64,000 nucleotides of DNA from Escherichia coli (GTDB lineage: Bacteria > Pseudomonadota > Gammaproteobacteria > Enterobacterales > Enterobacteriaceae), in assembly GCF_044324875.1 (NCBI RefSeq), contig NZ_CP172185.1. One strand, written 5' to 3'. Below the pieces are notes generated by a model. The model saw only the letters and a list, made by a program, of their open reading frames with translations. It was not told the origin of the DNA and did not search any database. Positions 18,782 through 24,066 of the stretch are shown here, piece after piece. A program made the position numbers and the translations under genes. Each line of letters begins with the position of its first letter. Position 1 is the first letter of the stretch.

Positions 18782-19312
18782 GTTGTATATAACAAAAATT
18801 AAAGAACTAATTAATATTTTGAATTATAATAAATAAACACTTTGAACGACAATGAAACTCTTTTGACTTAAAATTAGTTTGTATTCTTCTTAAAAATCAA
18901 ACCTGTGTCAACGCTGCCCCAATAGATACCACCAATTAAAACCATAGAAAAAACCACTAATACTCTTATTTATTACGGTTATTTAATCTATTGATTAAGG
19001 CTGAATTTAATATAATTTATTGCTGTGTTTTTACAAACATTTAGCATGATTGAACAAGTCATCCCGTTTTTTTCATGAAATGATTGATAGAAAGCTGAAC
19101 AGTACAGAATGATGTATCAGGGGACTCGTCATTTTTCCCAGCCTCAGAGTCTGTCTGAACGCTTTTACCACATTTTCTGTCTGCAGGGCTGCCGCCATTC
19201 TGGTTGTGTTATCAGACGCAGTAGCCGTTCTATCCGTCTGGAGGTGCCGGTAGCTGCCTATGTGGCAAGATTGCGTTGCATTTCGCTAGCGCGTCATCAG
19301 CGCCATGTTTCC

Positions 19313-20280
19313 TTAATATCCATCGCTGACCCTCCCGGGTTCACCTGTGTACGATCCGGAGACATGGTAGACAGGTGTTCGGGGACATGGTGAACACTTT
19401 TTAACATTCTTTGCCATGGTGATCGACTTATTTTTCAGGTCGATCACCCCCACTTTTGTACTGTACCACCAGACTTCATACTGACCGTCTTCCTGCGTCT
19501 CCTTCAGCCCCAGGCGTTCATTTCTGAATGCCTTGCCCGCACTCAGACTGACACCTCTCAGACTCAGTTTACCCCTGATATCCACCTTCCTGACTACCAC
19601 ACCCTCGTCATACTCCGGCGGCTCTACATTGCTCCTGAACTGTCGCGCTGACGGCTGATACCGTGAGGCAGGAACAGCCATATCCAGAGCTTCATGCGGG
19701 CGTTCAAGATTATAGACTGTACGCCAGTGATCGAAGGCGCGCTGCAACTCACCCGCATCTGTAAACCACTTACCCTGCAAAACTTCCGCCTTCAGACTGC
19801 GGTGAAAACGTTCCAGCTTGCCCTGCGTCTGTGGATGGTACGGGCTGGAGTGCCCCACCTTGATACCCTGACGCATCAGCCATAACTCCAGTGCCGTCCA
19901 GGTGCATCCTGTCCGGCAGTCCGTAGTGTTCAAATACGCTGACCAGCTGTTGCTGCACGGTCGTCCGTTGTTCATTGGCGCAGTGAGCCAGACACAGGGA
20001 AAAACGGGAATGATCATCCAGCAGCGTTAACGGATGGCAGCGTCCACCGCCAAAGGGAAAGTGCCCCTTAAAATCCATCTGCCAGAGCTGGTTCGGCGTG
20101 TTCGAAGCGGCCCGTCGCCGGGGCTGCCGCAACCAGACCGGGCAGAAGGCCATTGCGGGCCATCAGGTTATGCACCGTGCTGAAGGCGGGCAGAACAAAC
20201 TCAGAACGTAGTGACATGGTATCTCTCGCTTCCCTGGGCATAAGCGGCTCCATAAACGGGTTCTGATGCCTTAGTTGTAA
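19313..20280 (-). pseudogene. IS481-family-like transposase remnant in three frames
   Basis: ORF 19313..20017 C-terminal integrase core (…SSPYHPQTQGKLERFHRSLK…); ORFs 19770..20153 and 20068..20253 are the upstream parts in other frames. Confidence 0.5.
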
Positions 20281-20537
20281 GTATCAACCATGTCTCCGAA
20301 CAAGTGTTTACTATGTCTCCGCATCGTACACACCTGTCTGAGGGAGGAGACTGCCCGTCGCACTCTTTGTCTTGATTGCCGCAAATTGGCAGAGGTCGGC
20401 AACGCGAGTGTGATAAGCGTTAATGTCCCAGTGTTTTGCATACATGTCAGAACACCTTTGACTGTAAGCGCATACTGATCTTACCCACCAATAGTGGACA
20501 CAGGACTAAGTGAGTAAACTCTTAACCAGGGTGACTC

Positions 20538-20837
20538 ATGACAAAACCAGTATCAATCAGCAAGAAGCCCCGTAAACAACATACGCCTGAATTTCGTAAC
20601 GAAGCCCTGAAACTCGCTGAACGCATCGGTGTGGCCGCCACAGCCCGTGAACTCAGCCTGTATGAATCTCAGCTTTATGCCTGGCGCAGTAAACAGCAGC
20701 AACAAATGAGTTCGTCAGAGCGCGAAAGCGAACTGGCCGCTGAAAATGTCCGCCTTAAACGACAACTGGCGGAGCAGGCTGAGGAACTGGCCATCCTCCA
20801 AAAGGCCGCGACATACTTCGCGAAGCGCCTGAAATGA
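20538..20837 (+). CDS. IS3-like transposase OrfA
   Basis: 99-aa [34 protein letters not shown]…. Confidence 0.85.
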
Positions 20838-21892
20838 AGTATGTCTTCATCGAAAATCATCGGGCAGAGTTCAGCATCAAAGCGATGTGTCGTGTACTTC
20901 GGGTTGCCCGCAGCGGCTGGTATGTCTGGCTCAGGCGTCGTCACCAGATGAGCCTGCGCCAACAGTTTCGGCTCACCTGCGATGCCGCTGTCCATAAGGC
21001 ATTCTTTGAGGCAAAGCAGCGATACGGTGCTCCCCGCCTTGCTGACGAACTGCCGGAGTTCAATATTAAAACCATTGCCGCCAGCCTGCGTCGTCAGGGG
21101 CTGCGGGCGAAAGCCAGCCGGAAGTTCAGCCCGGCCAGCTACCGTGCACATGGCCTGCCCGTATTGGAGAATCTGCTGGAGCAGGACTTCAGCGCCAGCG
21201 GCCCGAACCAGAAGTGGGTGGGTGACATCACGTACTGTGTGCCCGGAGTTCAGGGCGAGCATAGACGCTCAAATGAACCACGAGTCTGTCTGGAATATTG
21301 AACCGGTAACTCACGATGAGAAACCCAACAATCCCACCGGGTGTGACGGTGGAGAACCTGAGCGGCAGTGACCTGCGGCATGCCCGCAGGGTGATGTAAC
21401 CCGCTGACAACGGGGATTGAGGCGAGATCACTAAGCCGAGATGATCCTCAAGGTTAAGTACTGAAAGGCTTAAGAATATGAACCCGTTAATCCGCCTCTG
21501 TGGGTTGAAAACGTCACCACGGCCTACGTGATCTGACAGGCCGTGCAGGAGGAACTGGCAGTGATACGTAAGCACTGCCGGTCGAAGGTGTTTTGACATG
21601 TATGCGAAACTCCGGGGCAGCAGCGTCTATCACGCTCGCGTTGCTGACTTCTGCCAACTTGCGGCAAGCAAGGATAAAGAGTGCGACGGGCAGCCTCCTC
21701 AGTATGTCTGAGTCCAGTCAGGCAAACCGGGGAAGGTCAGCGACGGATGTTAAGGGGGCATGGCTCCGATGACGCGCTGGCTGGCGGAGCTTCCGTAGTA
21801 GTCCGCGATGGGGAAAGCCCATTACATGGCGAAGGGAAGCAGTTTGAATGTGTCTGCGACGTAAATTAACTGACCTAACGAGGTGAAGACCT

Positions 21893-23416
21893 TTGATAAT
21901 CAGCGAAATGCAACGCAAGCTTGCCACATGGGCAGCCACCGATCCGTCCCTACGGATTCAACGGCTGCTGCGTCTGATAACACAACCAGAATGGCTGGCT
22001 GAAGCGGCGCGGATCACGCTTTCATCAAAGGGGGCGAATACCCCCGGTGTTGATGGCGTGAACAAAACAATGCTACAGGCCAGACTGGCTGTTGAGCTGC
22101 AAATCCTCAGGGATGAATTACTCTCAGGCCACTACCAGCCCTTGCCCGCCAGGCGGGTTTACATCCCTAAAAGCAATGGCAAACTGCGACCACTGGGTAT
22201 CCCCGCGTTGCGGGATCGTATTGTTCAGCGGGCCATGCTGATGGCGATGGAGCCGATATGGGAGAGTGATTTTCATACGCTCTCATATGGCTTCCGGCCT
22301 GAGCGCAGTGTCCACCACTCGATCCGCACGGTGAAATTACAGCTCACCGACTGCGGTGAAACCCGGGGACGCTGGGTGATTGAAGGCGACCTGTCCAGTT
22401 ACTTCGACACCGTACATCATCGACTGCTGATGAAGGCTGTACGCCGCAGGATCAGTGACGCACGTTTCATGACTCTGCTGTGGAAAACCATCAAGGCGGG
22501 ACATATCGATGTCGGTCTCTTTCGGGCGGCCAGTGAAGGTGTGCCACAGGGCGGTGTTATATCGCCGCTATTGTCGAACATCATGCTGAATGAGTTCGAT
22601 CAATACCTGCATGAGCGCTACCTGAGCGGGAAAGCAAGAAAAGATCGGTGGTACTGGAATAACAGTATCCAACTGGGCCGAAGTACGGCGGTCAGAGAAA
22701 ACTGGCAGTGGAAACCCGCGGTGGCGTACTGCCGCTATGCCGATGATTTTGTCCTCATCGTCAAAGGCACCAAAGCACAGGCGGAAGCCATCAGGGAGGA
22801 GTGTCGGGGTGTGCTCGAAGGCAGTCTGAAACTCAGGCTGAACATGGATAAGACTAAAATCACCCATGTTAATGACGGCTTTATCTTTCTGGGGCACAGG
22901 ATCATTCGCAAACGCAGTCGTTATGGCGAGATGCAAGTGGTCTCAACGATCCCGCTGGAGAAAGCCAGAAACTTCGCCGCATCGCTGACAGCACTGTTAT
23001 CAGGCAACTACAGTGAAAGCAAAGTCGATATGGCTGAACAACTCAACCGAAAACTGAAAGGCTGGGCCATGTTCTATCAGTTCGTTGATTTTAAGGCCAA
23101 AGTCTTCAGTTATATCGACCGTGTCGTGTTCTGGAAGCTGGCTCACTGGCTGGCCCGCAAATACCGTACAAGTATCGCTTCCCTGATGAGGTGGTGGTGT
23201 AAATCACCGAAACCGGGTCAGAGCAAAACGTGGGTTTTATTTGGTAAAACCAATCACGGCAAGCTCAGCGGCGAAATACTGTACCGGTTGGTGGGGCAAG
23301 GCAAGAAGCTGTTCCGCTGGCGGCTACCCGAAGGTAATCCCTATCTGAGGACGGAAACCAGAAAGACGTATACATCGCGCTTTACAGAAGTGGCAATGGC
23401 GTTCGCCAGCGTTTAA
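21893..23416 (+). CDS. Group II intron-encoded protein (reverse transcriptase/maturase)
   Basis: 507-aa ORF with the RT motif AYCRYADDFVLIV; apparent TTG start at 21893 after AGGTGA, or ATG at 21908. Confidence 0.85.
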   Translation: MIISEMQRKLATWAATDPSLRIQRLLRLITQPEWLAEAARITLSSKGANTPGVDGVNKTMLQARLAVELQILRDELLSGHYQPLPARRVYIPKSNGKLRPLGIPALRDRIVQRAMLMAMEPIWESDFHTLSYGFRPERSVHHSIRTVKLQLTDCGETRGRWVIEGDLSSYFDTVHHRLLMKAVRRRISDARFMTLLWKTIKAGHIDVGLFRAASEGVPQGGVISPLLSNIMLNEFDQYLHERYLSGKARKDRWYWNNSIQLGRSTAVRENWQWKPAVAYCRYADDFVLIVKGTKAQAEAIREECRGVLEGSLKLRLNMDKTKITHVNDGFIFLGHRIIRKRSRYGEMQVVSTIPLEKARNFAASLTALLSGNYSESKVDMAEQLNRKLKGWAMFYQFVDFKAKVFSYIDRVVFWKLAHWLARKYRTSIASLMRWWCKSPKPGQSKTWVLFGKTNHGKLSGEILYRLVGQGKKLFRWRLPEGNPYLRTETRKTYTSRFTEVAMAFASV

Positions 23417-23421
23417 ATGGA

Positions 23422-23456
23422 GAGCCGGATGCGCTGAAAGGTGCATGTCCGGTTCG
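23422..23456 (+). ncRNA. Group II intron domain V (catalytic hairpin)
   Basis: GAGCCGGATGCGC-TGAAAG-GTGCATGTCCGGTTCG stem-loop with GAAA-type loop, followed by AGGCAGGG…CCCTGCCT (domain VI-like). Confidence 0.6.
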
Positions 23457-24066
23457 GGGAGGAGAGGCAGGGAAATAGTCCGACTACGCCCTGCCTCTTA
23501 CTCTACTGCGTACCGATGAGGGCTGGTTGTATCTCACAGTAGTCATCGACCTGTGGTCACGCGCCGTCATTGGCTGGTCGATGTCACCGCGAATGACAGC
23601 ACAACTGGCCTGTGATGCACGGCAAATGGCGTTGTGGCGGAGAAGACGCCCGGAAAGCGTCATTGCTCATACGGACCGTGGTGGTCAATACTGTTCAGGG
23701 GATTATCAGGCGCTGCTGAAGCGACACAACCTGCGTGGCAGTATGAGTGCGAAAGGCTACTGTTATGACAATGCCTGTGTGGAAAGCTTCTTTCATTCGC
23801 TGAAGGTGGAATGTATCCACGGGGAACGCTTTAGCAGCCGGGAAATAATGCGGGCAACGGTGTTTAATTATATCGAGTGTGATTACAATCGCTGGCGTCG
23901 TCACAGTGCCTGTGGCGGTCTCAGCCCGGAACAATTTGAAAACCATAATCTCGCTTAGGGCCGTGTCCACATTACGTGGGTAGGATCACTCCACCGTCAC
24001 ACCCGATGGGATTGTTGGGTTTCTCATCGTTAGCTACCGATTCTATATTCCAGACAGACTCGAGGT

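Follow-up and report, generated by a model that had tools for sequence, protein, structure and literature searches.

Remnants of an older E.c.I4-like group II intron around an intact E.c.I4 in ISEc16 on an Escherichia coli genomic island

The window analysed here is a 64,000-nucleotide stretch of an Escherichia coli chromosome (RefSeq assembly GCF_044324875.1, contig NZ_CP172185.1), which carries a genomic island with ibrBA, sodC and sitABCD together with much insertion sequence (IS) debris. Within it lies a 6.1-kb mosaic (18700..24800) in which an intact copy of the group II intron E.c.I4, housed in the IS3-family element ISEc16, is accompanied by four short, diverged pieces of intron sequence on the opposite strand. 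The origin of these pieces and their relation to E.c.I4 are the subject of this study. The mosaic is shared at 99.9% identity by 32 of 5426 complete E. coli genomes, and the locus can be described as a stack of dead mobile elements nested in one another on the ibrBA-sodC-sitABCD island.

The intact intron occupies 21237..23506 on the plus strand (2270 nt), and was recognised by Rfam, by the TIGR04416 profile and by its identity to reference copies, being 98.2% identical to the ykfC fragment of strain K-12 and 98.5% identical to the copy of strain 55989. The open reading frame (ORF) of its intron-encoded protein (IEP) at 21908..23416 (+; 502 amino acids; TIGR04416, 335 bits) is open, and domains V-VI follow at 23420..23506 (+; Rfam Intron_gpII, 64 bits). 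The exon/intron junctions read ...ATCACGTACT|GTGTGCCC...CTCTAC|TGCGTACCGAT, and joining the exons yields an open IS3-family OrfB of 284 amino acids (IS3 transposase profile, 316 bits). With at least 98% identity to the E.c.I4 reference copies, a length equal to theirs, an open IEP, domains V-VI and a precisely restored host ORF, 21237..23506 is, judged by its sequence, a textbook case of the published E.c.I4 in ISEc16. The same locus in strain SMS-3-5 has been listed as E.c.I4-25 (PMC3522654, Table S3; Leclercq and Cordaux 2012), and the transposase genes of the IS3-family elements IS629, IS911, ISEc16 and ISEc31 have been reported as homing targets of E.c.I4 (PMC3522654).

The ISEc16 that carries the intact intron spans 20476..23988 (+), and was delimited by its spliced identity, the IS3 transposase profile and terminal inverted repeats that begin TGATCTTACCCAC... 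and TGATCCTACCCAC.... Once spliced, the 1243-bp element is 99.2% identical, in a single alignment, to the intron-less element named ISEc16 in RefSeq. It is assigned to ISEc16 by this near-identity over the full length, the terminal inverted repeats and the presence of orfA and orfB. The expected 3-bp target duplication is absent around it, the flanks reading TAC and CTC. The E.c.I4 copy in ISEc16 is apparently intact and is the sole element at the locus that could still splice and move.

In strains Ch1 and SMS-3-5 the IEP of this locus carries the stop W409* and is annotated as a pseudogene; the ORF is open in the window, so that the stop at codon 409 is a polymorphism within the 32 genomes with the mosaic. 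Elsewhere in the window an IS629-like orfB (~2221..3300, -) contains an unoccupied E.c.I4 homing site near 2673 (...TGGGTGGCTGATTTTACTTACG|TCAGC...), the 5'-exon 17-mer of which is the same as that of the occupied site in E. coli 55989. Rfam also matches the ALIL pseudoknot at 2995..3111, inside this IS629-like stretch. The window would hence hold a probably active E.c.I4 and a free target within 20 kb of each other (~18 kb apart).

With the intact intron (21237..23506) as the blastn reference against the 64-kb window, four colinear minus-strand matches besides the intron itself were obtained, all on one strand, in intron order and with 81-91% identity. Two of them had been noticed in an original prediction, which took them for truncated copies of the same intron, each in another IS3-family orfB, and proposed repeated homing into a conserved orfB site followed by IS insertions and deletions. 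Both of these pieces, here named A and D, proved to be real with slightly shifted limits; the other two, B and C, had not been seen.

Piece A (23989..24085, -; intron 22-118) begins at the base after the right end of ISEc16 (23988). Its blastn alignment, window 24075..23989 against intron 32-118 (21268..21354), is gapless with 79 of 87 positions identical (90.8%; E 3e-29), and the match extends to intron position 19-22 (window 24088/24085) when E.c.I4 from another strain serves as reference. Piece B (20337..20475, -; intron 332 to ~476) aligns at 20475..20344 with intron 332-464 (82%; E 2e-31), and corresponds to E.c.I4-tr2 (132 bp, 84%) in the published list of copies (PMC3522654, Table S3). 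Piece C (19285..19347, -; intron 483-545) is 81% identical to E.c.I4 over 19347..19285 (E 7e-11). Piece D (19194..19287, -; intron 666-759) matches 21902..21995 with 82 of 94 positions identical (87.2%; window 19287..19194; E 1e-27). What it encodes is IEP codons 1-29, codon 8 being a stop; tblastn recovers it at 79% identity (E 2e-7), and in RefSeq it figures as a 'reverse transcriptase' pseudogene interrupted by an internal stop.

Together the four pieces hold ~380 nt of intron-derived sequence. Chance or low-complexity similarity, which would have undone the original prediction, can be dismissed as their explanation. The E-values lie between 7e-11 and 2e-31 in a 64-kb search space, the remnant sequence is of ordinary complexity, and the four matches are colinear; in addition, piece D matches at the protein level and carries a RefSeq pseudogene annotation, and piece B stands in a published list. 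The pieces are genuine group II intron remnants. Intron positions 1-21, 119-331 and 546-665 are absent from them and nothing is present beyond position 759, and Rfam Intron_gpII has no match in the window other than 23420..23506. Without domains II-VI and a usable reverse transcriptase (RT), the remnants are inert leftovers rather than functional members of the family.

They are also not copies of the same intron, as had been supposed. Copies of E.c.I4 from different genera (Hafnia, Buttiauxella, Rahnella) are 98-99% identical to one another, whereas the remnants reach only 81-91%. E.c.I4 occurs at 98-99% identity in Hafnia paralvei, Buttiauxella massiliensis and Rahnella ecdela, and such identity across genera of the Enterobacterales implies recent horizontal spread. 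Closer relatives of part of the remnant are found in a diverged E.c.I4-like lineage with 88.8% full-length identity to E.c.I4, which includes three copies denoted L009, L010 and L011. L009 (Salmonella Newport plasmid CP075023, 3470..5712) and L011 (E. coli plasmid LR882059, 3158..5293) are full-length or nearly so, are 86-89% identical to E.c.I4, and sit at this same position in the orfB of further IS3-family elements. L009 and its host IS are wholly unannotated, and L011 has an ISEc31-like host and a frameshifted RT. Piece B is 89.5% identical to the clade of L009-L011, piece C is 87% identical to L011, and piece D is 91.5% identical to L009.

The interruptions between the pieces can largely be read. 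Piece A breaks off where ISEc16 has its right end (23988), at intron position 118, and piece B resumes beyond the left end (20476), at position 332, so that 213 nt of domain I (intron 119-331) are missing across ISEc16. The placement of ISEc16 and this loss would be due either to an IS-adjacent deletion or to recombination between two ISEc16 copies. Between pieces B and C a degenerate IS481-family element (19348..20330, 983 bp, -) is inserted in the old intron. Its ends form imperfect terminal inverted repeats of 54 bp (19346..19399 / 20332..20279), and it is surrounded by a perfect 6-bp target duplication, CACCTG, at 19342..19347 and 20331..20336. The best NCBIfam match of its ORF fragments is the IS481 transposase (E 3e-25 and 1e-13), with profile scores that fall under the curated cut-off because of frameshifts; the assignment is carried by the transposase, the inverted repeats and the duplication taken together. 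Removing the element and one copy of the repeat restores read-through of the intron, which means that pieces B and C were once one molecule. Between pieces C and D the 120 nt of intron 546-665, which are kept in related copies, have been lost, and with them the stretch that immediately precedes the IEP start.

Piece D is joined in sense, at intron position 759, to a 139-nt fragment from the middle of an orfB of a third, unnamed IS3-family type (19049..19187, -). In agreement with the original prediction, which had assigned this fragment to the type seen at 224..889, 19187..19049 is 79.6% identical to window 748..899 (E 7e-35); it is 81.7% identical to a further sequence (L016). RefSeq annotates it as an IS3-family pseudogene, and it stops at AT-rich DNA upstream of ibrA. 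The idea that piece D marks a separate homing event into this orfB does not hold, given that D is continuous with C and B through the IS481-family insertion and its 6-bp duplication. Neither is the join a homing site: intron position 759 lies inside the RT reading frame, and the orfB fragment, counted from the position where an intron would sit in its IS type, covers +86..+237, so that the intron meets a point ~86 nt downstream of that position. The join is a rearrangement.

On the other side of the mosaic, piece A adjoins a degenerate ISEc31-like IS3-family element (24079..24698, -), which starts inside orfA and ends at the W codon of ...EAEQVW. This stretch is 77.8% identical to ISEc31 161-784 and 86.7% identical to a closer relative (L004), matches the NCBIfam IS3 transposase with an E-value of 2e-14, and contains frameshifts and stops. 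The ISEc31-like element is the 5' exon of the old intron. As had been claimed, the orfB beside piece A (here its 5' part) is of a different IS3-family type and ends at ...EAEQVW. Piece A lies next to it in sense orientation, within 19 nt of the canonical site; the W codon itself, which had been equated with the insertion site, is 19 nt upstream of that site. In all five host types compared, namely ISEc16 (window), IS629-like (55989, L010), IS911 (K-12), ISEc31-like (L011) and another IS3-family element (L009), the distance from the W codon to the intron is exactly 19 nt. The claim of repeated homing into the conserved orfB site (W..D.TY) is borne out by these five hosts and has been published for E.c.I4 (PMC3522654).

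In the window the W codon runs straight into intron sequence from about position 22. The junction between orfB and piece A is therefore not the exon/intron boundary it had seemed to be, as the last 19 nt before the site and intron positions 1-21 are gone across a 7-nt repeat. This heptamer, GGTATGG (24085..24079), occurs in orfB (..GGGTATGG) and again at intron positions 22-28, where E.c.I4 has GGCATGG. Most simply, 47 bp were deleted across the original junction, comprising the 19 nt of exon, the 21 nt of intron and one copy of the repeat. The undeleted form of an ISEc31-like::intron junction is visible in L011. It was also considered that a variant intron might have its 5' end at GTATGG... 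at 24083 (GTATGGATTC...) with no deletion; this was rejected because ISEc31-like homology runs through TGG and because GTGTG is found in relatives only 40 nt further along.

An identical deleted junction occurs in strain CS5L, where ~35 nt of intron and then ISEc31 1156-1290 at 86.7% identity come after it. The ISEc31-like 3' end after the junction indicates that the old intron had the ISEc31-like element on either side, and the shared deletion must be older than the split of the two allele types. This alternative allele, an ISEc31-like remnant with ~35 nt of the old intron and its own 3' end, is present in CS5L (5001..5850) and in ~200 further records, the ISEc31-like remnant being carried at 99% identity or more by some 200 genomes; in the CS5L type the ibrBA side is replaced by unrelated genes, namely those for a LysR-family regulator and an ankyrin-repeat protein and fdrA. 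Relatives of the remnant were sought in the 5426 E. coli genomes, PLSDB plasmids, GTDB species representatives and JGI metagenomes. The metagenome search yielded one contig with the same junction between piece A and ISEc16 as the window (SKEG01003650.1, 7458..8254), which differs entirely beyond window 24658 and has another upstream neighbour of the ISEc31-like remnant. Among GTDB species representatives only the 98-99% E.c.I4 copies of Hafnia, Buttiauxella and Rahnella were found.

The pieces do not agree in their affinities. At informative sites piece A shares 8-10 with E.c.I4 and 0 with the diverged clade, whereas pieces B-D share 6-7 with E.c.I4 and 18-19 with the diverged clade (Fisher p 8e-5 to 0.015, varying with the reference sequences). 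Two different old copies joined through ISEc16, or one recombinant copy, are possibilities that would account for this. The former, which is close to the original prediction, would have A homed in the ISEc31-like orfB and B-D derived from a differently related intron in the third IS3-family type. The fragment 19049..19187 would then be the leftover 3' exon after a deletion of ~1.6 kb, and recombination between two ISEc16 copies would have joined the two introns. Besides the discordance, the missing target duplication of ISEc16 and the absence of intron 119-331 are in keeping with such a history, as are the sense orientation of the orfB fragment downstream of piece D and the plausible target motif of the third IS type, GATATTACTTACC. 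The discordance is, however, equally explicable by recombination among intron lineages or by decay of the reference copies. At the join of D and orfB (intron 759 and +86 of the would-be exon) no splice boundary is left, and the diverged-clade introns examined (L009, L010 and L011) all lie in other hosts than the third IS type.

Group II introns retrohome by reverse splicing that is guided by pairing between exon-binding sites (EBS) in the intron and intron-binding sites (IBS) in the target. In E.c.I4 a candidate EBS1 is AUACGUAAG, the loop that caps a 10-bp stem (intron 327-335), an assignment drawn from one hairpin; the candidate sequence, CGUAAG, is perfectly complementary to CTTACG of IS629-like sites. 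The start of piece B falls inside this loop, and its candidate EBS1 is CGUAUG, as in the diverged lineage including L011, which sits in an ISEc31-like site. The candidate pairing would fit an ISEc31-type site and may weakly favour one copy over two. Taken together, an origin from two independent copies seems to us a possible but distinctly less probable account.

We consider it very probable that an older relative of E.c.I4 homed into the orfB of an ISEc31-like element and was then shredded by insertion sequences, the remnants being what is left of its 5' 760 nt. An older E.c.I4-family intron (class A, without an endonuclease domain) would have retrohomed in sense into the W..D.TY site of the ISEc31-like orfB on the minus strand. 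Deletion of the 47 bp between two GGTATGG repeats, a structure that is seen and for which the repeats suggest the mechanism, may then have taken the 5' exon/intron junction. The IS481-family element entered near intron position ~476, as its 6-bp duplication records, and the loss of 120 nt including the IEP start region is likewise seen in the alignment. ISEc16 with the modern E.c.I4 now lies between intron positions 118 and 332, where 213 nt are missing, and would have come there by one of the two routes given above; it may have brought the young E.c.I4 with it, or E.c.I4 may have homed into an ISEc16 already in place. Finally, the sequence beyond intron 759 was replaced by the fragment of the third IS3-family orfB that now stands there. 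The IS insertions and deletions after homing that had been proposed are represented here by ISEc16, the IS481-family element and the junction and internal deletions.

Several points weigh against this account. The homing junction of the old copy is itself deleted; sense orientation and host type fit, but the canonical position can no longer be read, and it is orientation, proximity and analogues from which we infer that the old copy entered there. Piece A groups with E.c.I4 and pieces B-D with the diverged clade, so that a single unrecombined copy is not assured. ISEc16 lacks a target duplication. Lastly, nothing closer to the remnant than 83-91% was found in the E. coli genomes, PLSDB, the GTDB representatives or the JGI metagenomes.

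The arrangement also raises the matter of function. ISEc16::E.c.I4 has piece A on one side and piece B on the other, each the reverse complement of a part of the intron (22-118 and 332-476, respectively). As inverted repeats of 87-133 nt with 82-91% identity, conserved at 99.9% in 32 genomes, they could in principle give a read-through antisense RNA against domain I and EBS1 of E.c.I4 or promote inversions. It is geometry alone that speaks for this. Conservation at 99.9% is expected from clonal inheritance of a recent island, the deletions, stops and IS insertions have the marks of neutral decay, and almost all of the remnant has been deleted in other lineages such as CS5L; we regard a function of the remnants as extremely improbable. 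A somewhat broader conjecture, which we hold to be very unlikely, is that two successive E.c.I4-family invasions took place at one spot, an extinct CGUAUG lineage followed by the CGUAAG lineage by way of ISEc16, and that the old fragments might affect the live copy as antisense or recombination substrates.

Further features lie elsewhere in the window. An IS1 copy with InsA/InsB ORFs (25268..26035) is bounded by a 9-bp target duplication and is missing from strain CS5L, the region being otherwise 99.4-99.5% identical. Rfam matches to the Hfq-binding small RNAs isrN (6001..6143, -; 138 bits) and STnc490 (29191..29312, -; 134 bits) were also found.

The locus offers a tidy example of the published 'extinction-recolonization' picture for bacterial group II introns, with an old, decayed copy beside a young and probably active E.c.I4 and a vacant homing site ~18 kb off. 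Correct annotation would treat the four pieces as parts of one (or two) intron pseudogene(s) and not as unrelated fragments; beyond that the significance is little. Another parallel is RmInt1 of Sinorhizobium meliloti, which, as far as it is described in PMC4496777 and PMC4181065, also lacks an endonuclease, homes into the transposase gene of an IS (ISRm2011-2) and leaves fragmented, inactivated copies; RmInt1 differs from the E.c.I4 family in intron class, IS family and host.

The closest known system is E.c.I4 itself, a class A intron of E. coli and Shigella that is nearly identical to S.f.I1. The remnants are colinear with its first 760 nt and lie in a published type of host, an ISEc31-like element. 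They differ from it in being only 81-91% identical, in the grouping of pieces B-D with the lineage of CP075023 and LR882059, and in the loss of domains II-VI and the RT. Truncated copies have been listed before, namely E.c.I4-tr1 (ykfC, in the CP4-6 prophage of K-12) and E.c.I4-tr2 (SMS-3-5) (PMC3522654). Like these, the remnants are truncated E.c.I4-family copies in IS3-family transposase genes on mobile islands, and E.c.I4-tr2 is piece B. In E.c.I4-tr1, unlike in the remnants, the truncation is simple and recent (98-99%): IS5 has removed the 3' part, and the 5' junction in IS911 is preserved. The entry for E.c.I4-tr2 covers 132 bp, and does not describe the host IS, the order of nesting or the three remaining pieces. 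Nothing at the locus is new in kind, as both the homing of E.c.I4 into IS3-family genes and its decayed fragments have been published (PMC3522654); what is added here is the four-piece remnant, its ISEc31-like host, the nesting order, the junction deletions and the recognition that the join of piece D to orfB is a rearrangement.

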